Shown here piece by piece: positions 10,681 through 26,358 of a DNA stretch of 64,000 bases; the stretch's first letter is position 1; each line of letters opens with the position of its first letter. The stretch is from the NCBI GenBank assembly GCA_028718185.1, contig JAQUMH010000001.1:31186-95185 (forward strand). Reading direction: 5' to 3'. Source of the stretch: Elusimicrobiota bacterium. Lineage in GTDB: Bacteria > Elusimicrobiota > UBA8919. The notes under the pieces were generated by a model that did no database searches, was not told the origin of the DNA, and saw only the letters and a program-made list of their open reading frames with translations. A program made the translations under genes and the position numbers.

Positions 10681-12237
10681 CTACTTAGCCAGCTCTTGAT
10701 ATCGTGTTTCTCTTATGACTGTTACCTTAATCTGACCCGGATATTCCAGTTCTGTCTCTATTTTTCTTGCAATATCCTGGGCAAGCTGACTTGCCGCAGC
10801 ATCATCAATATCTTCAGGTTCAACTAAAATTCTTACTTCTCTGCCTGCCTGAACTGCATATGATTTTGCAACTCCAATGAATGATTCAGCAACTTTTTCA
10901 AGCCGTTCTATCCTTTTCAAATAATGTTCAAGCGTTTCCCTCCTAACACCCGGACGTGCTGCGGAAATAGCATCAGCAGCCTGTAAAACAAACGCTTCAA
11001 CCGATTCGGGTTGAACAATACCTTCATGATGAGCCAATATTGCATTTATCATTTTTGGAGATTCGCCATACTGTTTTGCAGTATCTGCAGAAAGCTGATG
11101 ATGCGTTCCTTCTACATCCTTATCAACTGCTTTTCCTATATCATGCAGAAGTCCGGCTTTTTTACAAAAATGAACATCAACTCCGAGTTCTGCTGCAAGA
11201 TAACCTGCTATATTTGCGACTTCAAGAGTATGTGACAGCTGGTTCTGACCATAAGATGTTCTGTATTTCAATTTACCGATAAGTTTTGTAATTTCAGGAT
11301 TCAAATTTGTAATACCTACCTCTAAGGATGCATCTTCTCCTGCTGCTTTTATATTTTCGTCCATTTCCTTCTTCACTTGATTAACAACTTCTTCTATTCT
11401 AGTGGGGTGAATTCTTCCATCTGCCATTAATCGTTCAAGCGATATTTTTGCAACTTCTCTTCTAACCCCGTCAAAACTTGATAAAGTAATAGTATCCGGC
11501 GTATCATCAACTATTAAATCAACACCTGTCGCCTGTTCAAATGCGCGTATATTTCTACCTTCCCTTCCAATTATTCTTCCTTTCATATCGTCATTTGGTA
11601 ATGGGACAGTAGATACAGTTATTTCCTGTGTATAGGTATTCGCACAATGTTGAATTGCAATCGCCAGTATCTCTTTTGCTTTTTTTGAAGCTGTTTCTCT
11701 TGCTTCCTGTTCTAATTTTTTTGTTAAAACAGCTGCTTCTTTTCTAGCTTCTTCTTCCATAATCTTCATTAAAACTTTCTTTGCTTCATCACCTGTCATT
11801 TGAGATATTTTCTCAAGTATCTTTTTTTGTTCATCTTTCTGCTGGTTCAATTTAATAAGTTCTAATTCTATTATTTTAGATTTCGAATTAATTTCGGTTT
11901 CTTTTTTTACAATATCTCTTTCTTTTTTCTCGATAATTTCAAATCTTTTATCAAGATTTTCTTCTTTTTGCAAAAGACGCCTTTCAAGATTTGACAATTC
12001 CTGCCGTCTTATTTTTGTCTGTGCTTCAAATTCCTGGCGCTGACGATGCATCTCTTCTTTTATTGATAATTCTCCTTCCCTTTTCTTCGCTTCAGCATTT
12101 TTTTCTGCATCCGTGATAATTTTCTTAGCTAAAGTTTCGGACGATTTTAAACTTTTTTTGGCAATAGAAACTCTAATGAAATATCCAACAATCAAACATA
12201 TAATCGAAGCCGCTAAAACCATTAAAATATTATCCAT
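10681..12237 (-). CDS. rny: Ribonuclease Y
   Basis: N-terminal transmembrane helix, long coiled coil, KH domain (GRIIGREGRNIR), HD domain (LLHDIGK). Confidence 0.95.
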   Translation of the reverse strand: MDNILMVLAASIICLIVGYFIRVSIAKKSLKSSETLAKKIITDAEKNAEAKKREGELSIKEEMHRQRQEFEAQTKIRRQELSNLERRLLQKEENLDKRFEIIEKKERDIVKKETEINSKSKIIELELIKLNQQKDEQKKILEKISQMTGDEAKKVLMKIMEEEARKEAAVLTKKLEQEARETASKKAKEILAIAIQHCANTYTQEITVSTVPLPNDDMKGRIIGREGRNIRAFEQATGVDLIVDDTPDTITLSSFDGVRREVAKISLERLMADGRIHPTRIEEVVNQVKKEMDENIKAAGEDASLEVGITNLNPEITKLIGKLKYRTSYGQNQLSHTLEVANIAGYLAAELGVDVHFCKKAGLLHDIGKAVDKDVEGTHHQLSADTAKQYGESPKMINAILAHHEGIVQPESVEAFVLQAADAISAARPGVRRETLEHYLKRIERLEKVAESFIGVAKSYAVQAGREVRILVEPEDIDDAAASQLAQDIARKIETELEYPGQIKVTVIRETRYQELAK

Positions 12238-12249
12238 TTTTCCTCCTTT

Positions 12250-12828
12250 TTATTCGTTGTTACAAATACAAGCATTTCGCCTGAAAATTCGTTTTTCCGT
12301 AATTACAAAATCCATCGGAACATCTTTTTCTGAAACCGGTATCCTTTTCAAAACCTGAAAACTGTGCGACAAACCAATCTTTACCGTAGAAATATTTTTT
12401 AAAAACTTGTCAAAATATCCTTTACCAAAACCAATTCGATTACATTGTTTGTCAAATACTACACCCGGAACAATCACTGCATCTAAATTAAAGTTGTTTT
12501 TAAGATTATTACCTTTAGTTTCCGGTTCTAAAATCCCATATTTACCTGAAACTAAATTTTTTAAATCTTTAATTTTAACAAGCATTAACTTATTTTTCAC
12601 AATTTTGGGTAAAAAAACGTCCTTCTTTAATTTTAATGAACTTTCTATCATCTTACGAGTATCAACCTCGTTTTTAAAAGATACGTAAAACGATACTCTT
12701 CTGGCATCGCAAAACTCCCTTAGCTTAAAAAGTTTTTTTAATATCTTTTCACTATTTACATCTACTTCCTTTTTATTAATTTCTTCTCTTATTGCTAATA
12801 TTTTTTTCCTGATATCCTGTTTATTCAT
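12250..12828 (-). CDS. 5-formyltetrahydrofolate cyclo-ligase
   Basis: 192 aa; DAVIVPGVVFDKQCNRIGFGKGYFDKFL motif typical of MTHFS/YgfA family. Confidence 0.85.
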   Translation of the reverse strand: MNKQDIRKKILAIREEINKKEVDVNSEKILKKLFKLREFCDARRVSFYVSFKNEVDTRKMIESSLKLKKDVFLPKIVKNKLMLVKIKDLKNLVSGKYGILEPETKGNNLKNNFNLDAVIVPGVVFDKQCNRIGFGKGYFDKFLKNISTVKIGLSHSFQVLKRIPVSEKDVPMDFVITEKRIFRRNACICNNE

Positions 12829-13923
12829 TTACTTATTTTTAAGTTCTTCCGGAACATCAACAATTCTTTCTTTTTCTATCTTTTCAATTTTTTCAAATAT
12901 TTTAGAATATGCTTCTCTGGATTTTTTTGCTAAAGACAAATATATCGTTACCTGAGAAAGTGAAATCTTTGCTTCAGGCATACCGACAAAATCAACTGCT
13001 TTAAGAACTGATGCTGCTAAAACTAATCCCATCGGGTCAGCATTACCAACATCTTCACTGGCAAAAATTACGAGCCGCCTTGCTATAAATCTAGGATCTT
13101 CACCGGCAACTAACATTTTTGCAAGCCAATAAAGAGCATCATCTGCTTTACCGGAACGCATAGATTTAATAAATGCAGAAATGGTATCATAATGACCATC
13201 TCCTTTTTTATCATAGACAACAACCTTTTTTTGAATGGATTCTACTGCAACATCTAAAGAAAATTCAACAAAACCTTCTTTATTTTTCTTTGTCGTTTCA
13301 AAACCTATCTCAACAGCATTCAAAAGCCGCCTGGCATCTCCTTCTGAATATTTTTTTAAATGATTTTTAGCTTCTACTGAAAATATAATTTTTAATTTTA
13401 ACCCGGTACTTTGTAGAATATTTTCTAAATTATCTTCTGAAAGCTTTTTAAATTCAAAAACCTGTGATCTTGACAAAAGTGCAGAGTTAATATAAAAATA
13501 TGGATTTTCAGTTGTGATTCCAATCAAAACGATTACTCCTTTTTCTACATAAGGCAGAAGACAATCTTGTTGCGACTTGTTAAAATGATGTATTTCGTCA
13601 ATAAGCAAAATAGTTTTTTTATCTCTATTTTTCGCTGTATTAATTGTTTTTCTTAAATCATCTACACCGCTTATAACAGCGCTTATTTCCTGAAAATATC
13701 CCGATGTCATATTAGCGATAATCTTTGCTAAAGATGATTTTCCGCTACCGGAAGGACCGTAAAATATAACAGATGAAAGTTTATCCGATACAATTGCCCT
13801 TCTTAATAGCTTGCCTTCCGATAAAATATCTTCTTGTCCCACAAAATCATCAAGTGTCTTGGGACTCATTCTCGATGCTAATGGTTCTTTTCTTTTGATA
13901 TTTTCTTTTTCAAACAAGTCCAT
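12829..13923 (-). CDS. rarA: Replication-associated recombination protein A (AAA+ ATPase RarA/MgsA)
   Basis: Walker A GPSGSGKSS, LLIDEIHHFNKSQQD, GDARRLLN, and conserved C-terminal MgsA domain (ALYWLAKMLVAGEDPRFIARRL). Confidence 0.85.
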   Translation of the reverse strand: MDLFEKENIKRKEPLASRMSPKTLDDFVGQEDILSEGKLLRRAIVSDKLSSVIFYGPSGSGKSSLAKIIANMTSGYFQEISAVISGVDDLRKTINTAKNRDKKTILLIDEIHHFNKSQQDCLLPYVEKGVIVLIGITTENPYFYINSALLSRSQVFEFKKLSEDNLENILQSTGLKLKIIFSVEAKNHLKKYSEGDARRLLNAVEIGFETTKKNKEGFVEFSLDVAVESIQKKVVVYDKKGDGHYDTISAFIKSMRSGKADDALYWLAKMLVAGEDPRFIARRLVIFASEDVGNADPMGLVLAASVLKAVDFVGMPEAKISLSQVTIYLSLAKKSREAYSKIFEKIEKIEKERIVDVPEELKNK

Positions 13924-13994
13924 ATATAGATACTAAAATTACTGAAATATCCGCCACTAAACCGTTGGCGGATTTATCCTTTACGCATTCTGCG

Positions 13995-14165
13995 TAATAG
14001 GATAAAAAAATCCCCGCGAATGCCGTGTGAACAAAATGTTTGAAGCACTACTTACTAAGTGGGTATCCTGTTCAAGTAACCAAAATTACAAGAAACGCAG
14101 ATTCCCAAAATTGTGCTTGTAAGCTCAAAACAGTCTATTCAACACCAACACCGCAGGGAAATTAT
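13995..14165 (-). ncRNA. ssrS: Candidate structured small RNA, possibly 6S RNA (SsrS)
   Basis: 247-bp non-coding gap immediately downstream of zapA; minus-strand 5' CCCUGCGG (about 14150) can pair with CGCGGGG (about 14015) followed by a U-run, enclosing about 140 nt; E. coli places ssrS between zapA and the 5-formyl-THF cyclo-ligase gene. Not verified by covariance model. Confidence 0.25.
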
Positions 14166-14169
14166 AATA

Positions 14170-14457
14170 TCACAAACGTAATGCTGACTCTAAATGCAAA
14201 ATCAACTCATCAACATTTCTATCTAATTCCGTTTCAATATTTTCTTTTTCTTCTTTCAACGCAAAAACTTCCTCCGCTAATGTAATAAGTGTAAGATTTA
14301 GTATCTTCAAAGTATCAGGTGTGTTCTGTTCTTTGCTTACTTCATTCAATTTTTCATTAACATATTTTGCAAGCTGGCTGACAAACAAGGGCTCCATTTC
14401 TGTTTCAATATCAAACTCACTATTCAATATTTTTATAGAAACCCTTTCTTTTGTCAT
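14170..14457 (-). CDS. zapA: Cell division protein ZapA
   Basis: 95 aa; N-terminal beta region (VSIKILNSEFDIETE) followed by coiled coil, ZapA-like. Confidence 0.7.
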   Translation of the reverse strand: MTKERVSIKILNSEFDIETEMEPLFVSQLAKYVNEKLNEVSKEQNTPDTLKILNLTLITLAEEVFALKEEKENIETELDRNVDELILHLESALRL

Positions 14458-14696: not shown

Positions 14697-14788
14697 TACA
14701 CTAAAAAATTATACAAAAATATTTGATTTTGTCAACTCTCTTTTTGGTGATTATTTTTATAATAATTATTTGAACGAAATTGGCTATA

Positions 14789-17700
14789 CTATTTATCAGC
14801 CCAGTCTTTGGCGATTAAAATTGCTTGTTCCAATACTGTTTCGGTTGCTTTTTTCTGTTTATCAGGTGGATACCCATATTTTCTTAAAATTCTTTTTACC
14901 ATTACCCTCAAATTTGCCTGTATATTTTCTCTTATTGTCCAGTCAATAGTAACATTATTTCTCACTGTCTTTATCAGTTCCCTTGCAATTGTTCTCAAGA
15001 TTTCATCTCCAAGAACCTTAACTGCACTGTCATTTACTTCCAAAGCATCATAGAATGCAAGTTCATCTTCAGTTAAATTTAATAACTCACCCCGTTTATC
15101 AGCATCCCTCAACTTCTTTGCTAATTCAATGAGTTCTTCTATAACTCTTGCTGTTTCTATTGCCTTATTCTGATATTTCCGAATCGTCTTTTCCAGCATT
15201 TCCGCAAATGACCTGCCCTGTATTAGATTTCTTTTTGTCCTTATTTTTATTTCGTCATTCAGCAATTTTTTCAAAAGTTCAAACGCTAAATTTTTGTGCG
15301 GCATATTTTTTACTTCCGCCAAAAACTCATCCGAAAGAATTGAAATATCCGGTTTTTTAATCCCAGCTGCTTCAAATACATCAATCACTTTATCAGAAGT
15401 AATTGCTTTTGATATTATCTGTTTTATTGCCGTATCAAGTTCTTCTTCTGTTTTACCACCACCCACTTCAAACTTCGCAATTCTTGACCTTACCGCTTGA
15501 AAAAAACCTACATTGTCTCTAATCTCAAGTGCCTTTTCATTCGGGACGGCAAGGGCAAACGCCTTTGATAACTGCGAGACATAATTCAAAAATCTTTCTT
15601 TTCCCTTCTCTTTTTCCTTGCCTAATATAAATTCGGCCGCTTCAGCCAATATGCCCATCTTTTCTCTTACACCAACAGTGAAAAACTTCTTATAATCAAA
15701 TTTACCTGCCTCGCCAACAGGCGGGACGAACATGCCACAAACGATTTCGTATTTTTCAAGCATAACTGCAACTGCTTCTCTCTGGTCAAAAGTGGGCTTC
15801 CCTTCTCCGCCACTTTCTGTATAGATTGAAAGTGCTTCTTTCAAATCGGCTGCAATGCCTAAATAGTCAACCACGAGTCCACCGGGCTTATCTTTGAAAA
15901 CCCTGTTCACTCTTGCTATCGCCTGCATAAGACCGTGCCCGCGCATCGGCTTGTCAATATACATCGTATGCAAACAAGGAACATCAAATCCCGTAAGCCA
16001 CATATCTCTCACAATTGATAGCTTAAGCGGGTCGCTGTCATCTTTCATTCTGTTGCCTATTTCTCTGCGTCTCTGTTTATTTCTTATATGTTCCTGCCAA
16101 CCAACATCATCACTTGCAGAGCCGGTCATTATTATTTTAAGAAAACCTTTGTCATCGTCTTTGTGATACCAATCGGGACGGAGTTTTATAATCTCATTAT
16201 GCAGTTCAATACAAATACGCCTACTCATACAGACAATCATTCCTTTGCCATCAAGCACTTTTAGACGCTCTTCAAAATGTTCTACAATATCTTTTGCAAT
16301 CTGTTTAATCCTTTTTTCACTGCCAATGATTGCCTCAAGCCGAGCCCATCTTGTTTTTAACTTCTCTTTTTTCTTTACTTCTTCGAATTCGGTCACTTCT
16401 TCGAATTCAGGGTCAATTTTAGGTCGCTCTTCTGCTTTTAACTCAAGTTTAGCAAGACGGTTTTCATAAAATATTCTGACTGTGGCACCATCTTTAACTG
16501 CCTGCTCAATATCATAAACATCAATGTAATCGCCAAAAACTGCAATCGTATTCCTGTCAGTTTTTTCTATAGGCGTTCCGGTAAATCCTATAAATGAAGC
16601 ATTCGGCAATGCATCCCGCATATGCTTTGCGAAACCATCTATAAAATCATACTGACTTCTGTGTGCCTCATCTGCAATAACTACTATGTTTCGTCTTTCA
16701 GACAACAATTGGAAACGGTTTGCATTTTCTTCAGGGAAAAATTTTTGTATTGTTGTAAATACAACACCACCGGATGCAACTTTTAAATATTCTTTAAGTT
16801 CATCTCGTGTTTCTGCCTGTACCGGCTCTTGCCTTAAAAGTTCCTGACACCTGCAAAAAGTACCATACAATTGGTCATCTAAATCGTTTCTATCTGTAAG
16901 AACGACAATAGTCGGATTATCCATCCTAAGAACAAGTTTGCCGGTATAATATGCCATTATTAAACTTTTCCCTGAACCCTGAGTATGCCACACAACACCG
17001 CACCGTTTGTCGCCTTTCTTACTTGATGCTTTAATCGTTGATTCAACCGCCTTATTTACCGCATAATATTGGTGATATGCTGCTATCTTTTTGGAAGTTT
17101 TAATTTGCTCATTTTCAAAAACAATAAAATGTCTAATTAAATCAAGAAGAACTTTTTTATTCAGCATCCCTTTCAATAGCACTTCTATCTGCGGAACAGT
17201 TGCCGGTTCTTTTTCTGTGCCATCAATTGTTTTCCAAGGCAAAAACCTCTCCCAATCAGAAGTTATTGTCCCTGCTCTTGCTTCATTGCCATCACTTATT
17301 ATAAGGATTTCGTTGTAATTGAAAACGGAAGGTATTTGTGTTTTGTAGGTTTCAAATTGCTTGAATGCCGATTTTATAGTAGCGTTTTCATCAGCAGGAT
17401 TTTTTAATTCAATGACAACTAACGGCAAACCATTCACAAAAATAACAATATCGGGACGCCTGTTGTTATTATTTTCTATAACTGTAAATTGATTTACTGC
17501 TAAAAACTCATTATTGTTGATATTCTTAAAATCAAAAAGCCATACTTTATCACCAACAATTTTTCCCACCTTTTTATATTCAACATCAACACCGTTAACC
17601 AAGAGTTTATGGAAATTATGATTATTTACAATCAGGTTAGGGGTTTTGTCTCTCAATACTTTTTTAAGGACTTCTTCTTGGGCAGTTTTTGGAACCTGTG

Positions 17701-17890
17701 GATTTAACCTGTCAATTGCTTCCATTAACCGCTCAATCAAAACAGAATTGAAATAATCATCTCTTTCAGGTCTCGTGCCATCAACAGCAATATCCGGACC
17801 ATAAAGTGTCTTATATCCCAATTCTTTTAATATGTCCAATGATAACTGTTCAATTTCCGATTCGGTGATTATGTGTGGCATATTTTTCAA
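14789..17890 (-). CDS. hsdR: Type I restriction enzyme R subunit (HsdR)
   Basis: 1033 aa; N-terminal nuclease region, SF2 helicase motifs (TQGSGKS, DEAH-like [10 protein letters not shown]). Confidence 0.95.
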
Positions 17891-17893
17891 TGT

Positions 17894-18658
17894 TTATGAA
17901 ACTAATTCTTGCCTTATTGCTTCTCTCTCACTCCAAATTACTGGATTAACTCCATAATTAAACAGTGCTTCAATAACCGAAGGCATAGTTTTTTGTTCTG
18001 AATCATTTAAGAAAGCATAAGCTTTAGAATTAGTAGGTCTAACTTCCTTGGTATCAATCCAAGAAAAAGCAAGAGCTTGTGCAGTATCTTTATTGGGTCT
18101 ATTTATTGTTTGAATAATTCTTTCCGGTTGCCTTTTTGATGCAGGAATTACAAAGTCAAATAAATGGTCATAACCGCTTTTCCCAGTAAATTTAATCCTC
18201 GGAGTATATCTAATATCATTTATATTCATCCAAGAAGTAACATCTTCAAAAAACAAACTGGCAACCATAGGTGCAGCTAAATAAAATAAATCATTTATTG
18301 CTAACATAGCCTGTACCAAATTATGCTTTTTTAATGAAAAGTTTTCAGATGAAGCATGCAAAGTTAAAGATTTTTCTTGCATTTTAACGCCAAAACCGTT
18401 TAATGTTAATAGAAGAAGATCCTTGCGTTTTTTACTATCTAATTCACAGCCCGATTGCATAAGATCAGCAATGGTATAGCCATCATCTGTTAAAATATAA
18501 CCATTATTATCCCGCTTAACATATATTTGTAAATAATCATTGTGTCTATCCAAATAAGGAGTCGTTATTTCGACCCAATCTTCTACTTGACGTAAAGCTG
18601 TTTTATCTTTCAACCAATTTAAGTAATTATCCAAAAGCTTTTGTATTTCGTCTATCAT
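17894..18658 (-). CDS. Uncharacterised protein embedded in type I R-M operon (from memory resembles DUF1828/DUF1829-type proteins)
   Basis: 254-aa ORF; ATG overlaps stop of upstream 151-aa ORF (ATGA), and it ends 4 nt before hsdR start; no catalytic motif recognised. Confidence 0.5.
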
Positions 18659-19110
18659 GAAAATAACCCCCTCTCTATGTTCGGTGGTTCTATTATATTA
18701 CATAATATCATAAAATCGCTCAAGGTTTGCCATAAATCAGAAATATTTGGGAATCTGTCAATTGGCAAAGGTACTGCCCACTTATCACCAAATCCTTCAC
18801 GATAATAATGTAAATGTGGTGATGCTATTTCTTGCCCATCAGGATTCCTATGAGGCTGTCCACCAAAATCTAATCTAACAAGTATTACTACTTGTTGTGC
18901 ACGATTTTGATATGAACCTTTTAGTAAGTCAATTCTACCTCTGCTAATATCAAGCATAAAGTTCTCACGTTTGTTTACAGAAGTTATAGGAACGCGTATT
19001 TGTCCACCATATCCAGGGTATTCCCAACTTACATCATTGACTTTTACTTTTTCCATTGCTATCAAAGTATTCGCTTCGGTTTGAGGTAAATTAATTTCAG
19101 GCATTTGCAC
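18655..19110 (-). CDS. Uncharacterised protein embedded in type I R-M operon
   Basis: 151-aa ORF overlapping hsdS 3' end by 14 nt and coupled to the following 254-aa ORF; contains PHLHYYREG and HRNPDG segments of unknown significance. Confidence 0.5.
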
Positions 19111-20290
19111 TCCTTTTTATTCTTATCTTTCCTGACATTAGTTTTGGTAAAAGAGAATCACAAATATCGTTTAATTTTTTATTTTCTCGCAAATTCTCTA
19201 ATATTTGCTGCATGATAGGCTCAATTACCTTATGAAACTTTTTCATTATGAAATCATTTGGAACAACAATACTTATTCGCGCAAAATTTCCTGTATTAAG
19301 ATTCAATGTAGCTGTTCCCCCAAGTCCCATAGTTTTTATTTCTTCACTTTTGTTCAACATAGAAAAATACATAAAATATGGACTAATTTCTTTTTTACAA
19401 ATAATGCTATTTATTTGTTGATTTGTCTGACTAACTTCACTTGTAAGTGATACTAAACCTGGAGTAGCTATACAACTGACACAGACAGATAACGCAGATA
19501 AATATTTATTTTTTTGTAAATCAGCCCCTTGTTTTGAAAGTATTTTTTCTGTTTTAATTACAAAAACAAAATTACGCATATCAGGAATAGTAATGAACGG
19601 TATATCTGCTCCATAATTATCTCTATTTATAGTTGCAGGAGTTTTTCCGCAAATAATATCACCACAGTCTTTTATTTCTTTTTTCCCCCATCCATCAGGT
19701 AAACCATTTTTAAATTTTGTTTTTTCATAGTCGGGGAAACGGAAAGCAATAAACCACTCCTTGAATATTGCCTGAGCTATTGACTCAAGGGTTTTATTCA
19801 TCTGGTTATTTAGTTCTATCTTTTCATCAAGGTCAGAAAGAATTTTTGCAATCGCCCGCTGTTCATTGAACGATGGTATATGTTTTTTTATTTCATACAC
19901 GTAATCACGATTAAGTCCGGGAACTGCTGAATGACTATTCATTTCAGTAAGATTTAATGTTTTAAGAAAATAATACCAAAACAATATGTCGTTTTCTCCT
20001 TTTGTTTTTACGTAATATGTTGTATCAATAGGCCAAAAATCAGTTTTTGAAAATGTAACTTGTCCAACAGTGCCTTTCCTGCCAATAATAATTCCAGGTC
20101 CTTTTACAAGTGCTTCATTATGCTGACCAATAATACCATTTGAACCATAGACCGATATATCACCACCTTTTCTCTCTCTTGTTATAAGCCCATCACCATA
20201 AACTAACTCAATATTATTTCCAACAGATGATTCTTCCCATCCTTCGGGAATTGCACCAATTTCTGTTTGTTTGAATTTATTCTTTTCCAT
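19097..20290 (-). CDS. hsdS: Type I restriction-modification specificity subunit (HsdS)
   Basis: Two target-recognition domains separated by conserved spacer; ORF track begins at 20347 but likely start is the internal Met (MEKNKF...) at 20290, just after the HNH gene stop. Confidence 0.85.
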   Translation of the reverse strand: MEKNKFKQTEIGAIPEGWEESSVGNNIELVYGDGLITRERKGGDISVYGSNGIIGQHNEALVKGPGIIIGRKGTVGQVTFSKTDFWPIDTTYYVKTKGENDILFWYYFLKTLNLTEMNSHSAVPGLNRDYVYEIKKHIPSFNEQRAIAKILSDLDEKIELNNQMNKTLESIAQAIFKEWFIAFRFPDYEKTKFKNGLPDGWGKKEIKDCGDIICGKTPATINRDNYGADIPFITIPDMRNFVFVIKTEKILSKQGADLQKNKYLSALSVCVSCIATPGLVSLTSEVSQTNQQINSIICKKEISPYFMYFSMLNKSEEIKTMGLGGTATLNLNTGNFARISIVVPNDFIMKKFHKVIEPIMQQILENLRENKKLNDICDSLLPKLMSGKIRIKRSANA

Positions 20291-20297
20291 ATTGTAT

Positions 20298-20990
20298 TTA
20301 ATTAGTTGCGATTGTCTTACATTTTTTACAAAAACATCCCGGGTCATGAAAACCTATCTGCATAATAAGTTTGTCCCAGAACAGCATACCCCAGAAGTGA
20401 AATTTATTTAACTCGGGAATAATAATATATTTATAATCAAATACTGCTGGATACTGCCCTTTTGATGAGATATTACGTATATACTCAAACTCCAAATCAG
20501 GTCTTTGTCCTTCTGAGTAAATCTTGTTAATACGCGGTGTTCTATCAGGAAGAAACTGTCCGCATTCTTTAAAAAATAACCCTCTTGTAATTTTCCAAAC
20601 CACTCTCCAAACACGCTCGCCATTGAATCGTTTTAGTACTTTATTATATGGTAAAATAAGCCCTGACGGCCTTGTTTCAAATTCTTTAAAAACCATTTTG
20701 TGAAGACGACTACCTGCGGGACGCTTTCTTCTGCATACAATATCCTTCCAAATTTCGCTTCCTGTATCTGATTCCATTGTTAATGGAGCTATAGAATGAA
20801 CAAAATAGTCTTCATCTATCTGGTATGGTTCATGACATTTGCGATGAACCGGCAAAGTAAATAAATTTGGGGAATCTTTCTTCCTAACACGGGTCGCATA
20901 AAATTGTTTCGGAGGAACGTGGTCTTTATCTACTTTACCCGATAGCATATTACCGCACAAGTAACATATTTCTATTTCTTTTTTAGCCAT
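20298..20990 (-). CDS. HNH-motif endonuclease-like protein
   Basis: CYLCG...DKDHVPP...VHRKCH arrangement consistent with an HNH/zinc-finger nuclease core; C-terminal CFCKKCK; lies between yhcG-like gene and hsdS. Confidence 0.55.
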   Translation of the reverse strand: MAKKEIEICYLCGNMLSGKVDKDHVPPKQFYATRVRKKDSPNLFTLPVHRKCHEPYQIDEDYFVHSIAPLTMESDTGSEIWKDIVCRRKRPAGSRLHKMVFKEFETRPSGLILPYNKVLKRFNGERVWRVVWKITRGLFFKECGQFLPDRTPRINKIYSEGQRPDLEFEYIRNISSKGQYPAVFDYKYIIIPELNKFHFWGMLFWDKLIMQIGFHDPGCFCKKCKTIATN

Positions 20991-20992
20991 TG

Positions 20993-22132
20993 CTATTTTT
21001 TTATTTTGTTTGTGCTTTTACTCAACTCTTTCTCAATTTGTTTTATTGTTGGTAGATTCGATTTGAATTTCTTGGGTAAAGAATGTGTTAATTGATATTC
21101 AGAAACACCAATTGGCTTATGAATATCGCTTAAAGCATACTCAGCGACCACTTTATCTTTGGTTTTGCAGATAATTATTCCGACAGTCGGTTGGTCGAAT
21201 TCACTTCTCAACTGGCGGTCTACTGCAGTAATATAAAAATTCAATTTTCCGGCAAACTCCGGTTGAAATACCACAGTTTTTAGTTCTATCACGATATAAC
21301 AACGCAATTTAATATGATAAAAAAGCAGGTCTATGTAGAATTCACTTTCACCTACACGCAATGGAATTTGCCGTCCTACATAAGAAAAACCGGTTCCTAA
21401 TTCCAATAGAAACTTTGCAATATGCTCAATAAGAGCATTCTCCATGTCTTTTTCATTGTATTCTTCGGTTAACCTTAAAAAGTCAAAAATATAGGGGTCT
21501 TTGAGTGTTTGTTTGGCGAGGTCAGATTGGGGTTTAGGCAGTGTAAGAGAAAAGTTATTAACCGCCTTGCCTTCTCGTTTGAAAAGTCCCCATTCAATCT
21601 GGTGAACTAATACAGAGCGGCTCCAATTGTGCGTAATTGTTTTTTGAACATAATAAATTGCTTCTTTTATATTCTTACATTTTGTTATAATTGCGATGTT
21701 ATGACCCCAAGGTATCTGGGTGATTTGTGCAACGGCTTGTTGCACAAATTGTCCGACAGACTTTTGGATAATTCTGTTTATTGGCAATTGGGCAACAGCC
21801 TGTTGCCCAATTAAGCCAACAGGCTGTTGGCTTATCGCATTTCCCCGGCTATAAAACTGATACCATTGCTTGATATATTTAAGATTTCTAAGTGAGAATC
21901 CCTTCATATCCGAAAACTCTGCTGTTAAATCCTTGCTAAGCTGAATTAGAAAACCGCCACCCCATTTGGTGTTTGCCTGTTTAGCCACAATATCTGCACC
22001 AAGCTCCCAATAAAAGGAGAGCATTTCTGAATTAACTTTTACCGCTGCTTTAATCTGGGCGTTACGGACTTTTGCTTTTAAATCAGCAAGCCAAACTTTG
22101 TATTCCTTATCAAATACTAAATTAGATTTCAT
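20993..22132 (-). CDS. YhcG-like PD-(D/E)xK nuclease (DUF1016 family)
   Basis: QIPWGHN N-terminal motif and C-terminal [10 protein letters not shown]...IVIELK PD-(D/E)xK core; overlaps hsdM stop by 11 nt. Confidence 0.8.
21725..21835 (-). repeat. Three in-frame near-perfect palindromes inside the yhcG-like coding sequence
   Basis: TTGTGCAACGG/CTTGTTGCACAA (21725-21747), AATTGGGCAACAG-C-CTGTTGCCCAATT (21786-21812), AAGCCAACAG-G-CTGTTGGCTT (21814-21834); encode repeated QQAVAQ peptide. Confidence 0.6.
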
Positions 22133-23729
22133 ATCCCAGTCCTTTTAAATTTTTCTTTATTTCTTTTTCAAGTTCTTCGGATTTTTCAAACTGTTCTGAA
22201 AGTTCTTTGGTAAGTCGTTTCATTTTTTCATTAAACTTTTCTTTATCTTCTTCCACTTCTTCGGTGCCTACATATCTACCGGGTGTCAAAATATAACCCT
22301 GTGATTTTATTTCTTCAAGTGTTGCCGATTTGCAATAACCTTTTTCATCTTTATACTTGCCCGCCGACGTCCCAGTGGCGGGTTTACCTTCTCCCCGCCA
22401 TGCATGATATGTATCAGCAATTCTATTTATCTCTTCTTCAGTTAATTCCCTGTGCCTGCGGTCTATCATTACGCCCATTTTCCGAGCATCAATGAAAAGA
22501 ACTTTGCCCCTTCTGTCTTTGAATTTGTGATTTTTCTTATCGCGAGCAATAAACCAAAGACAGGCGGGTATCATTACATTGTAGAAAAGTTGTGATGGCA
22601 AAGAAACCATACAATCCACTATGTCTGACTCAAGCATATTTTTTCTTATTTCACCTTCATTTGACTGGTTAGAAGACATAGAACCGTTTGCTAATACAAA
22701 GCCTGCAATACCTTTTGGCGATAGATGATAAACAAAATGCTGAACCCATGCGAAGTTGGCATTACCTGTCGGAGGGACACCGTATTTCCATCTCACATCA
22801 TCTCTTAATTGCTCGCCCTTCCAATCACTGTCATTAAATGGTGGATTGGCTAATATAAAATCTGCTTTTAAATCTTTATGTTCATCTTTTAAGAAACTGC
22901 CTTCATTATTCCACATTATATTTGCATCTATACCACGGATTGCTAAGTTCATTTTACAGAGACGCCATGTGGTTTGATTGGATTCCTGTCCATTGATAGC
23001 AATATCACCTAATTTACCACCGTGTGCTTTTACAAATTTTTCGCTTTGAACGAACATACCACCGGAACCACAACACGGGTCAAAAATACGACCTTTATAT
23101 GGCTCCATCATTTCCACAAGTAATTGCACTATGCTCCGCGGAGTATAAAATTGCCCGCCTCGTTTACCTTCCGAATCTGCAAACTGCCCTAAGAAATACT
23201 CATAAACTCTACCCAAAATATCTTTACTGCGATTTTCGTAATCTCCTAAACTAATTGTACCTATAAGGTCTATTAGTTCACCAAGACGCTGTTTATCAAG
23301 TTTAGGGTCTGCATAATTTTTAGGAAGAACACCCTTAAGGGTTGGATTTTCCTTTTCTATAACATACATTGCGTCATCTATGATTTTACCTATTGTGGGT
23401 TGTTTTGCATTTTTCTGTAGGCGTGACCAGCGGGCTTTTTCCGGGACATAAAACACGTTTACGGCTTTATATTCGTCTCTGTCTTCAATTGTCTCATAAC
23501 GCACTTCGGGTTCTTTTATATATTGATTGCTTTTTGGATTAGAAACTTCTTTTACAAGTATTTGATAATGTTCTTCGAATGCGTCGGAGATATACTTAAG
23601 AAAAATCAATCCTAATACAATATGTTTATACTCAGCAGCATCCATATTGTTCCGCAGTTTATCAGCTGCTTTCCACAGTTTTTCCTCAAAACCAAGATTT
23701 CCACCATTTGAATTATCTTCTTTTTTCAT
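22122..23729 (-). CDS. hsdM: Type I restriction-modification DNA methyltransferase subunit (HsdM)
   Basis: 535 aa; N6-adenine MTase motifs including NPPFN and SAM-binding region. Confidence 0.95.
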
Positions 23730-23967: not shown

Positions 23968-26358
23968 TTACCTTAATTTTGTTTGGAATTTATTTTCAAG
24001 TTGTAAAACAATCTTTTTTACAACCACATCCACTTCTTCATCTTTTAATGTCCTGTCTGATAATCTAAATCTTATTCTAAAAGTAAGTGATTTATATCCT
24101 TCCTTAATTTGTTTTCCGGTATAAAAATCACATACGCTCACATCAACAGGAATATTAGACGCTTTTTCTTTTATAGCATTACATATTTCTACTGCAGGAT
24201 ACTGTTGAGATACTTCAATTGAAATATCCCTTTCTATAAACGGATATTTGGGAATATGTACGTATTTCCTCTCAAAACCGGCAGAACAAATAAGCTTATC
24301 TAAATCCAACTCAAAAACATATAAACAATCATTTTTAATATCTTGTTTTTTTATTACTTCAACATTGAGCAATCCAAAACTTCCGACATTATTGTTTTCT
24401 ATTAAAATATCTGCTGACTGATTTTGCTGAAACATTTCTTTGTCAGATTTTTTATACTCCCATGACTTAACCCCAATTTCCCTGAATAGTCTCTCAATAA
24501 AACCTTTTAAAAAATAAAAATCTACTGCAACAGCTTTTTCTTTCCACCAGTCATATTCCGAACCTAAAATACATCCTGAAAAAAATGTTTTTTCTTCCTC
24601 CCCAAAAACCTTTCCAATCTCAAATATTCTTATATCTTTATTACCTCTATTAATATTTCTTACCACAGTTTTTACCAGTCTTGGGATAAGCGATATTGAC
24701 AAAAACGGTTCTTCTAAAGATATAGGATTGGCAACTTTTCTTGCGCCTTCTGCCAACGTAAAAACAGCAAAGTCATCTTTAGATATAAAATTATAATTAA
24801 TCGTTTCATAAAATCCCACTGACACTGCAGTATTTCTTACTTTATCTATAACCTTTTCTGATTTATTTAAAACAATATCTGTTCTGAATGTTATTTTATC
24901 GCTTGTTTTTATTTTATCATAACCAAAAATACGAACGATTTCTTCTATTAAATCAAAATCTGTTTTGACATCGTTCCTGTGAGAAGGAACGGTTACAGAA
25001 AGTAAATAGGGGACAGGAAGCCCGCCACTAAACATTGGCGAGGCAGGCAAGAAGCAAGAAAAACCAAGGCGGGATAGAATATCCCTTATTGCATCAATTG
25101 AAATATCTATGCCTAATATTTTATTTACCCTGTCGGCATCAAGTTCTATTTTAATTAATTCTTTTTTATTTGAATATTTGTCAATCATACCGCCGGAAAT
25201 TTCGCCGCTGCAATTTTTTTTAATCATTTCCGATGCTATCATTCCTATATTTGAAATATTTTCCATATCGACCCCTCTTATAAATCTATAAGACGAATCT
25301 GTGGAAATTCCAAGTTTTTTTGAGGTTTTGCGTATAGAAATAGGATTAAAACATGCTACTTCTAAAAATACATTTTTAGTATTTTCAGAAACGGCTGTAG
25401 GCTCACCACCGATTACACCTGCAATAGCAATAGGGTCTTTTTCATCGGCAATCACAAGCATTTCTTCATCAAGACTATATTCCTTATTATCAAGTGCTAA
25501 AATCTTCTCATCCTTTTTAGCATTTCTGATAACAATTTTTCCCTTTATTTTTTCAATATCAAATGCATGCAGCGGTTGTCCATATTCAAATAGAATATAA
25601 TTTGTAATATCAACAACATTATTTATTGTTCTTAAACCACAACCTTCTATACGGTCAATAAGCCATTGCGGAGATTTTCCTACTTTTATATTTTTTATAA
25701 TAAATCCAACATATCGAGGACAATCTTTCGTATTTTCTACAACTACGGGAAAAATATTCTCTACTTTAATATCATAATCCCCTATCTCTTTCTTTAATTT
25801 TTTATTTAGTATTGCGGAAATCTCCCTTGCAATTCCAAAAACCGATAAACAATCACCCCTGTTTATTGTAACTTCAGTTTCAACATAAGAATCCTTATTC
25901 AGATATTCATTAATCGGGACACCAAGATTTACATCCGGAGGCAGAAGCAAAATCCCGGATGAATCATTACCAATTTTAAGTTCAGATTCTGAACAAAGCA
26001 TACCTTCTGATTCAACCCCGCGAAGCACAGCTTTTTTTATTTCACCTGCTGGCAACTTTGCCCCAATTTTTGCCAGCGGTACAATATCATCAACTTTCAT
26101 ATTTTTAGCACCGCAAACAATTTTGTAATTCTTCTGACCGTCGGTAACACTGCATATTGAAAGCTTATCTGCATTAGGATGTTTTTCTATTGATAAGATT
26201 TTTACAACAACAACATTTCTATCAATTGAAACACATTTAACAGGTTTAGTTTCAATCCCTGACATTGTAAGAAGGGAAGATAATTTTTCGGCATCAATAT
26301 CAACATCAATAAAATCCGACAGCCATTTTAATGAAATTATCATAATAGTATTATACAA
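23968..26358 (-). CDS. pheT: Phenylalanine--tRNA ligase beta subunit
   Basis: 796 aa; N-terminal tRNA-binding domain (LKWLSDFIDVD...), B3/4 and B5 regions. Confidence 0.95.
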   Translation of the reverse strand: MYNTIMIISLKWLSDFIDVDIDAEKLSSLLTMSGIETKPVKCVSIDRNVVVVKILSIEKHPNADKLSICSVTDGQKNYKIVCGAKNMKVDDIVPLAKIGAKLPAGEIKKAVLRGVESEGMLCSESELKIGNDSSGILLLPPDVNLGVPINEYLNKDSYVETEVTINRGDCLSVFGIAREISAILNKKLKKEIGDYDIKVENIFPVVVENTKDCPRYVGFIIKNIKVGKSPQWLIDRIEGCGLRTINNVVDITNYILFEYGQPLHAFDIEKIKGKIVIRNAKKDEKILALDNKEYSLDEEMLVIADEKDPIAIAGVIGGEPTAVSENTKNVFLEVACFNPISIRKTSKKLGISTDSSYRFIRGVDMENISNIGMIASEMIKKNCSGEISGGMIDKYSNKKELIKIELDADRVNKILGIDISIDAIRDILSRLGFSCFLPASPMFSGGLPVPYLLSVTVPSHRNDVKTDFDLIEEIVRIFGYDKIKTSDKITFRTDIVLNKSEKVIDKVRNTAVSVGFYETINYNFISKDDFAVFTLAEGARKVANPISLEEPFLSISLIPRLVKTVVRNINRGNKDIRIFEIGKVFGEEEKTFFSGCILGSEYDWWKEKAVAVDFYFLKGFIERLFREIGVKSWEYKKSDKEMFQQNQSADILIENNNVGSFGLLNVEVIKKQDIKNDCLYVFELDLDKLICSAGFERKYVHIPKYPFIERDISIEVSQQYPAVEICNAIKEKASNIPVDVSVCDFYTGKQIKEGYKSLTFRIRFRLSDRTLKDEEVDVVVKKIVLQLENKFQTKLR

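Follow-up and report, generated by a model that had tools for sequence, protein, structure and literature searches.

What are two overlapping genes doing between hsdS and hsdR of a type I R-M operon in an Elusimicrobia MAG, and are they under the control of the R-M system that surrounds them? We refer to the whole stretch of DNA that was analysed, 64,000 nucleotides in length, as the window, and to the two genes as A and B in their order along the operon. A first-pass annotation had placed both ORFs inside an otherwise canonical operon. The two ORFs are present on the minus strand as described, but the operon is less canonical than that wording implies, because a YhcG-like gene and a 230-aa ORF also lie between hsdM and hsdS. 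Seven co-oriented, close-packed genes run on the minus strand from 23729 to 14789, with one promoter-like element ahead of them:

23866-23839, upstream of hsdM: promoter-like TTGATT-16-TATAAT
22122..23729, minus strand: hsdM, methyltransferase, first gene of the operon (Pfam HsdM_N and N6_Mtase, E = 6e-112)
20993..22132, minus strand: gene for a YhcG/DUF1016 PD-(D/E)xK protein (PADLOC PDC-S02), between hsdM and hsdS (YhcG_C, E = 4.8e-66; DUF1016_N, E = 3.6e-37; PDC-S02, E = 2e-154)
20298..20990, minus strand: ORF230, 230 aa, between the YhcG-like gene and hsdS (from the ORF list)
19097..20347, minus strand: hsdS, specificity subunit, directly upstream of gene A (Pfam Methylase_S in two stretches, E = 6e-37)
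18655..19104, minus strand: gene A, 149-aa DUF6978 protein, PDC-M24A (an alternative start at GTG 19110 gives 151 aa)
17894..18658, minus strand: gene B, 254-aa DUF1828+DUF1829 protein, PDC-M24B, its start overlapping the stop of gene A
14789..17890, minus strand: hsdR, restriction subunit, directly downstream of gene B (Pfam HSDR_N, SWI2_SNF2, T1R_D3-like and T1RH-like_C)

The hsd operon is a multi-cargo locus with four embedded genes rather than two, since the YhcG-like gene, which stands apart from the A–B pair, and ORF230 are also embedded. ORF230 had no match in Pfam, PADLOC, PHROGs, NCBIfam or the sequences of the PDB. At the junction of hsdS and gene A, which reads AAAAAGGAGTGCAAATGCCTGA, the stop codon of hsdS falls within the start of gene A. 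The 151-aa product and 14-nt overlap with hsdS given at first do follow from the GTG at 19110, but the ATG at 19104, which lies 5 nt after an AGGAG Shine-Dalgarno sequence, yields a 149-aa product, the length of an identical database protein (P0001, NCBI) and of nearly all gene A homologues; the ribosome-binding-site spacing and homologue length make the resulting 8-nt overlap the likelier one. Genes A and B overlap by an exact ATGA at 18658-18655, just as claimed. The 4-nt gap reported before hsdR needs correction, as the TAA of gene B ends at 17894 and hsdR starts either 3 nt (TTG 17890) or 12 nt (ATG 17881) further on. A single transcript with translational coupling across the operon is plausible, and a promoter and terminator scan is consistent with it without proving it: counts were at or under shuffle expectation, and the operon contained no convincing internal terminator. 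The GC content of the cassette (0.32-0.34) is in line with that of the host and so gives no sign of recent arrival.

Profile searches placed both proteins in defined families. Protein A belongs to Pfam DUF6978 (E = 5e-43; 147 bits against a gathering cut-off of 29.6), and the likeness of the 254-aa protein to DUF1828 and DUF1829, suggested at first, proved correct (E = 1.3e-29 and 102.8 bits against a cut-off of 22 for DUF1828; E = 2.5e-34 and 118.1 bits against 22.2 for DUF1829). Both proteins also matched PADLOC profiles nearly end to end, protein A the PDC-M24A profile PDLC04538 (E = 2.3e-55; residues 7-150 of the 151-aa ORF, profile positions 2-145 of 146) and protein B the PDC-M24B profile PDLC04539 (E = 3.4e-108; residues 4-253, profile positions 3-254 of 255). 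The gene order, A then B, adjacent and on one strand, is that of PDC-M24 (FAM_00129>>FAM_00065). This system is among 145 phage defence candidates of Payne, Hughes, Fineran & Jackson (2024), whose Table S8 lists cassette CAS_00098, FAM_00129>>FAM_00065, with the entry 'Assign as candidate PDC-M24', and whose criterion for a candidate was embedding in BREX, DISARM or type I R-M systems (bioRxiv 10.1101/2024.01.29.577857). The window pair shares with PDC-M24 its two families, its order and its embedding, with no structural difference. By these profile matches, then, the pair is identified as a further instance of a catalogued candidate, here in an Elusimicrobia MAG; it is not the novel module it had been taken for, and the argument from embedding had already been published.

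Other resources added little to this identification. PHROGs returned only families of unknown function and NCBIfam no match, and across Pfam, PADLOC and NCBIfam neither gene matched a toxin-antitoxin, ATPase or nuclease family. The profile search of each ORF suggested with the original description yielded DUF6978, DUF1828 with DUF1829, and PDC-M24A/B. A literature search with 'PDC-M24' and the Pfam accessions gave no main-text match and no report of the family having been tested; DUF6978 and DUF1828 received no more than incidental mention, in omics and genomics papers on S. aureus, and one proteomics preprint reports quantification of a protein from this species that resembles DUF6978 by BLASTp.

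We then asked how the pair is distributed, using a scan of one genome per species that found a protein A relative in 191 genomes and from which 80 loci were kept. Pair order was read by tblastn with the window proteins, a locus being testable where the contig continues past gene A. Gene B came directly after gene A in 79 of 79 testable loci, three genera of methanogenic archaea among them, with an alignment gap of 0-9 nt, which shows that the arrangement is not due to chance and bears out the tight coupling proposed from the single locus. Pairwise identities of A and B were strongly correlated (r = 0.91; 0.74 without three phage and plasmid outliers), indicating that the genes are inherited as a unit, in which B always adjoins A in that order, usually with an overlap. 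For each protein, the 120 closest homologues retained 67-82% identity to that of the window across phyla, their sources including Elusimicrobia, KSB1, Zixibacteria, Desulfobacteraceae, Nitrospirae and Syntrophomonadaceae. The distribution of the pair is patchy, with horizontal transfer across bacteria and archaea.

Only part of this distribution falls in R-M operons. Among the 37 well-flanked loci (at least 5 kb on both sides), 18 had the pair flanked by hsdM/hsdS upstream and by hsdR downstream, with every gene on one strand, 18 had no type I genes nearby and one had only a partial operon; the full set of 80 comprised 28 embedded loci, 9 with a partial R-M operon, 18 solitary, 24 undetermined and one at which the contig ends after gene A. 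On the question raised at first, whether homologues of the pair recur together inside R-M or defence islands, the linkage and the 18 embedded loci give a positive answer, but an equal number lie outside R-M operons. Wherever a pair was embedded, the flanking HsdR belonged to the window's family (45-70% identity to the window HsdR), and the alignment gap between gene B and hsdR was 0-24 nt in ten loci. Solitary cassettes were found among housekeeping genes (L001, L091, L093 and L094). The L004 cassette borders an island of toxin-antitoxin pairs, and that of L095 belongs to a defence island that also contains AbiEi, Mrr and another type I system; the L093 cassette also adjoins other toxin-antitoxin pairs. 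Embedded and solitary states were interspersed, with an embedded cassette as the nearest relative of 10 of the 18 solitary ones.

Cassette and operon also diverged independently of one another. Across the 23 embedded loci with a full-length HsdR, cassette identity was unrelated to HsdR identity (Mantel r = 0.06, p about 0.3), and similar cassettes sat beside much less similar restriction subunits (92% identity over A and B against 52% for HsdR in L034/L051; 82% against 50% in L066/L068), with a few concordant recent pairs (L037/L038 and L039/L050). This uncoupling points to a module that is autonomous mobile cargo and leaves gating of the PrrC type unsupported. In related operons, the stretch between gene B and hsdR held genes for Abi_C, RhuM-Fic, Fic, AAA_14-DUF4143 and AAA_21-DUF4276 proteins. 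Overall, the hsdS-hsdR gap behaves as a hotspot that gathers independent cargo, of which the A–B pair is one item.

Copies on mobile elements extended this picture. In both Lactobacillus prophage Lj965 and S. aureus phage 37 (ORF031/ORF014), the pair occupies the interval from repressor to integrase; further copies are found on the IncP plasmid pRSB223, and on an S. epidermidis plasmid record of 41.6 kb where phage-like repressor and integrase genes surround the pair. These phage and plasmid copies are about 23-35% identical to the window proteins, with both Pfam families confirmed, and none of them, nor the S. aureus copies, has adjoining hsd genes. The repressor-integrase interval of temperate phages is a typical place for exclusion and defence genes that are expressed in the lysogen. 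In the IMG/VR database, an A-like ORF was present at 39 of 50 loci with a relative of B, directly upstream and on the same strand in 37 of them, while 9 of the 11 loci lacking one had only a truncated, DUF1828-only B; four viral contigs each carried two tandem pairs. As a separate observation, a gene annotated 'superinfection exclusion' lies two genes from the pair in Lj965.

The cassette thus moves between several settings, namely type I operons, the lysogeny modules of phages, a plasmid and chromosomal sites where it stands alone. We consider it reasonably probable that the A–B pair, PDC-M24, is a conflict cassette of two genes that is autonomous, spreads horizontally and is carried as R-M-independent cargo in the hsdS-hsdR gap; our confidence in any assignment of roles within the pair is much lower. 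Its strong association with type I R-M and other conflict contexts makes 'candidate anti-phage module' a reasonable label, as first suggested. Against a conflict cassette stand the many solitary copies that lie among ordinary genes with no defence neighbours.

The alternative that fares best, though we judge it unlikely, is a plain toxin-antitoxin or addiction module that stabilises its carrier element and has no direct anti-phage activity. A compact cassette of two coupled genes, with constant linkage and with mobility between phyla and types of replicon, would suit such a role, as would the toxin-antitoxin neighbours at L004 and L093 and the frequency of decayed or split copies. There is also a published parallel in HipAD/DS-6, a validated two-gene defence system whose second protein, annotated DUF1829, is proposed to be antitoxin-like (DefensePredictor, Science 2026, PMC13092281). 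Neither A nor B, however, resembles a known toxin or antitoxin family, both proteins are unusually conserved among their closest 120 homologues, and placement in lysogeny modules and R-M gaps is typical of defence cargo.

How a conflict cassette of this kind might act depends on the two proteins, of which B is taken up first. Its predicted structure (pLDDT 72.6 overall, below 50 for residues 127-166) suggests a YbjN/type-III-chaperone-like N-domain followed by a restriction-endonuclease-like C-domain. Fold-likeness scores for the C-terminal half were 8.8 to PspGI, 8.3 to VC1899, 7.5 to both NucS and AF1548, 7.2 to Can2 and 7.0 to NgoMIV and Cfr10I. Foldseek ranked EndoMS/NucS, Card1 and VC1899 at the top, weakly (E = 5e-3 to 2e-2) and with no match at E = 0.001; sequence and profile searches of the PDB gave no meaningful match, and an hhalign comparison of the C-domain with an alignment of YhcG_C from the window and related loci was uninformative (probability 0.1%). 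The initial statement that neither protein has a PD-(D/E)xK signature accordingly stands for the canonical motif, but the C-domain of B looks restriction-endonuclease-like at the level of fold.

Conservation in B gives a mixed picture of that domain. Residues E138, D139, D168, E179, N218 and D219 are conserved across the wide family, and the spacing of D168 and E179 is suitable, with E179 followed by R/K and then by a hydrophobic I/F/M at 181. The canonical D...(D/E)xK motif is nonetheless absent, with no lysine conserved in the C-domain in the family alignment, so the nuclease domain may be inactive or serve only in DNA binding. The C-domain is often lost or split off in S. aureus and prophages. 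The N-domain and central helix have invariant polar residues of their own (D37, D41, Y46, D58, R78, K111, H112, Q116 and D123).

Protein B has no detectable sequence similarity to NucS/EndoMS or to the CARF-nuclease effectors Can2, Card1 and VC1899, from which it further differs in its N-domain, which is neither CARF nor that of NucS, in lacking the D...(D/E)xK lysine and in having the obligately linked partner A. In comparison with YbjN, DUF2170, CesT and SycE-like chaperones, the N-domain of B stands out by its invariant D37, D41, D58, K111, H112 and D123 and by its fusion to a nuclease-like domain outside any secretion-system context; such invariant acidic and histidine residues are not known from secretion chaperones. 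YbjN- and DUF2170-type proteins are regulators according to the descriptions of their PDB entries. The only published link between DUF1829 and defence that we found is DS-6B of HipAD (PMC13092281), which combines DUF3037 with DUF1829 and is partnered by a HipA-like kinase, whereas protein B combines DUF1828 with DUF1829 and is partnered by a DUF6978 protein; for DS-6B, the proposed role is that of a DNA-binding, antitoxin-like protein and not of an effector (PMC13092281).

Protein A was modelled with higher confidence (pLDDT 88.4, pTM 0.85) as an N-terminal helix, a six-stranded antiparallel meander and a C-terminal helix, and no known fold or sequence relative was found for it. Structure comparison, which had been proposed for each ORF, therefore gave a two-domain likeness and weak Foldseek matches for B and no fold relative for A. 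Across 44 homologues, down to 23% identity, K19, R77, N87, H97 and H99 of protein A are invariant and R68, H85, P88, Y101 and C135 at least 90% conserved; the core motif reads R-L-D-x-x-G-x-P-H-x-N-P-D-G...P-H-L-H-x-Y. This polar cluster may form a metal-binding or catalytic site. Over long distances protein A also diverges faster than protein B, identity to the phage 37 proteins being 23% for A and 30% for B, and PADLOC holds at least five models for PDC-M24A and two for PDC-M24B.

On the reading of the pair as an R-M-independent conflict cassette, translational coupling would ensure that both proteins are made together and act as a complex. Protein B would be the likelier effector, with a restriction-endonuclease-like C-domain under a chaperone-like, protein-binding N-domain, and protein A the faster-evolving sensor or regulator, or else a metal-dependent co-catalytic subunit. 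The complex would respond to phage infection by cleaving nucleic acid, be it directly, in a restriction-like manner, or as an abortive-infection toxin. Embedding in the R-M operon would provide expression from the hsdM promoter and co-transfer rather than control.

One objection to B as effector is that the polar cluster of A would fit an enzyme or toxin just as well. In the converse arrangement, A would be a metal-dependent enzyme of novel fold and B a DNA- or protein-binding regulator whose endonuclease-like domain is inactive. Several features speak for this: the invariant K19/R77/N87/H97/H99 set of A together with H85, R68, Y101 and C135, the absence of the ExK lysine from B, the regulatory DUF1829-annotated partner in HipAD (PMC13092281) and the description of YbjN- and DUF2170-type proteins as regulators. 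We nevertheless think it quite unlikely, as no fold or sequence relative of A points to catalysis, its three histidines and one cysteine could coordinate zinc in a structural role, it is the faster-evolving of the two proteins, and B too has many invariant acidic and histidine residues.

Less likely still, and to us improbable, is a guard mechanism like that of PrrC, as suggested in the first-pass annotation, in which HsdMSR keeps the pair latent until a phage anti-restriction factor releases it. PrrC itself is the precedent, being a defence gene that is hardly ever seen outside type I operons (bioRxiv 10.1101/2024.01.29.577857), and the window pair shares with PrrC/RloC the position of an accessory gene inside a type I hsd operon, co-oriented and close-packed. 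About half of the well-flanked loci are likewise embedded, in one slot, one orientation and beside one HsdR family, and their boundaries are often as tight as in the window, including the ten short gaps between gene B and hsdR. The resemblance ends there. PrrC combines ABC-ATPase and anticodon-nuclease domains in a single protein, whereas the pair consists of two proteins with neither domain; PrrC is almost exclusively embedded, whereas the pair is embedded in only about half of well-flanked loci and, unlike PrrC, also occurs in phages and on plasmids. With half of the well-flanked loci free of type I genes within at least 5 kb, no hsd genes adjoining the phage, plasmid and S. aureus copies, and cassette and HsdR divergence uncoupled, R-M gating is unlikely to be the core mechanism.

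A non-conflict role, whether as a housekeeping or regulatory pair or in element maintenance or homing at the hsdS-hsdR junction, is highly improbable: several solitary copies do have ordinary metabolic genes as neighbours, PDB entries describe YbjN-family proteins as general regulators and the cassette recurs at one type I operon junction, but its distribution is patchy and horizontally transferred across bacteria and archaea, with enrichment in R-M operons, defence islands and the lysogeny modules of prophages. It has no consistently linked transposase or integrase, and its borders in the window are seamless gene overlaps.

Returning to the conflict-cassette reading, the window locus alone adds little, being a further instance of a catalogued candidate that was flagged by an already published logic. 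The survey, by contrast, defines PDC-M24 beyond its catalogue entry through the exceptionless linkage of the two genes, their single slot in type I operons, their exchange independently of hsdR, their sites in phage lysogeny modules and the two-domain fold assignment of B. If the cassette is defensive, it would offer a new effector and sensor architecture and a clean example of cassette swapping in R-M hotspots. A stronger version, which we regard as possible but would put at somewhat below an even chance, is that PDC-M24 represents a new anti-phage mechanism, in which a DUF6978 protein of new fold with a metal site joins a partner that is chaperone-like and non-canonically endonuclease-like in a self-sufficient, cassette-exchanged system. 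Were this true, the system would work unaided in archaea, bacteria and temperate phages, those of S. aureus and the lukED region among them.

What remains of particular interest is the unusual conservation of the family, the lack of a known fold for A and the S. aureus phage copies, which can be tested. In S. aureus chromosomes, the pair flanks lukED beside an epidermin-type lantibiotic (gallidermin) cluster and, together with the phage 37 copy, makes the candidate testable in a tractable host. These chromosomal pairs are sometimes duplicated, and gene B is often split into ORFs of 164 and 112 aa.

The type I restriction-modification (R-M) operon that carries genes A (DUF6978) and B (DUF1828+DUF1829) has two further genes between hsdM and hsdS:

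20993-22132, minus strand: YhcG/DUF1016 PD-(D/E)xK gene (PADLOC candidate PDC-S02, E 2e-154)
20298-20990, minus strand: 230-aa ORF between the YhcG-like gene and hsdS

The start of the YhcG-like gene shares 11 nt with the 3' end of hsdM, with hsdS lying on its other side. Because a YhcG homologue fills the equivalent hsdM-hsdS slot in at least six related A-B operons (L015, L035, L038, L039, L055 and L064), these six being from different lineages, the composite hsdM-yhcG-hsdS-A-B-hsdR is a recurrent arrangement. Related operons also carry extra conflict-type genes between B and hsdR (L015, L027, L040, L041, L047, L051, L066 and L076), namely Abi_C, RhuM with Fic, Fic, AAA_14 with DUF4143, and AAA_21/AAA_15 with DUF4276 pairs. 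The interval from hsdS to hsdR is a hotspot for multiple cargoes.

The 230-aa ORF had zero matches in Pfam, PADLOC, PHROGs, NCBIfam and PDB sequences, and tblastn against 86 loci of the wider survey returned none. Its motifs (CxxC...DKDHVPPK...HRKCH) look, by eye, HNH- or zinc-finger-like. The annotated hsdS start falls 50 nt within this ORF, unless hsdS begins at internal Met20.

Beyond the hsdR end of the operon, three features lie close together:

14708-14735, minus strand: sigma-70 consensus match TTGACA-16-TATAAT, 12/12 perfect
14696-14457, minus strand: small coiled-coil ORF next to the sigma-70 consensus site
14457-14170, minus strand: second small coiled-coil ORF

The consensus site lies ~55 nt past the stop codon of hsdR, immediately ahead of both coiled-coil ORFs, and probably marks the restart of host transcription beyond the R-M island. 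Read by eye, the genes on both flanks are housekeeping, with RNase Y-like, 5-formyltetrahydrofolate cyclo-ligase-like, RarA/MgsA-like and small coiled-coil ORFs at one end (10681-14457) and a pheT-like gene at the other (23968-26358). GC is host-like throughout (0.29-0.40). This makes the R-M island an old, ameliorated insertion in an Elusimicrobia MAG. Exact matches (100% identity) to proteins A and B have been recorded on a 970-kb contig.

At another locus (L004, 1-11211), the A-B cassette lies on the margin of an island whose other contents include PIN-MazE, HicAB and an AAA_14-DUF4143 gene. Bordered by a duplicated trpA fragment and a prephenate dehydrogenase gene (Pfam PDH_N/PDH_C), this island has the look of an insertion that duplicated its target.

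On Staphylococcus aureus chromosomes (L096-L099), the DUF6978 and DUF1828/1829 pair adjoins the lukED leukocidin genes and a lantibiotic (gallidermin family) cluster, and in L098 and L099 two such pairs flank lukED. Gene B is split in L097 into a 164-aa (DUF1828) and a 112-aa (DUF1829) ORF, and the homology search revealed many more S. aureus sequence clusters with a truncated, DUF1828-only B.

In IMG/VR, some viral contigs have two tandem A-B pairs each (L130, L139-L141), and two show a convergent layout, with A downstream of B on the opposite strand (L110 and L119). Nine short, DUF1828-only B genes without an A-like ORF (L109, L121-L123, L125 and L145-L148) may form a single-domain family of their own or be copies that have decayed.
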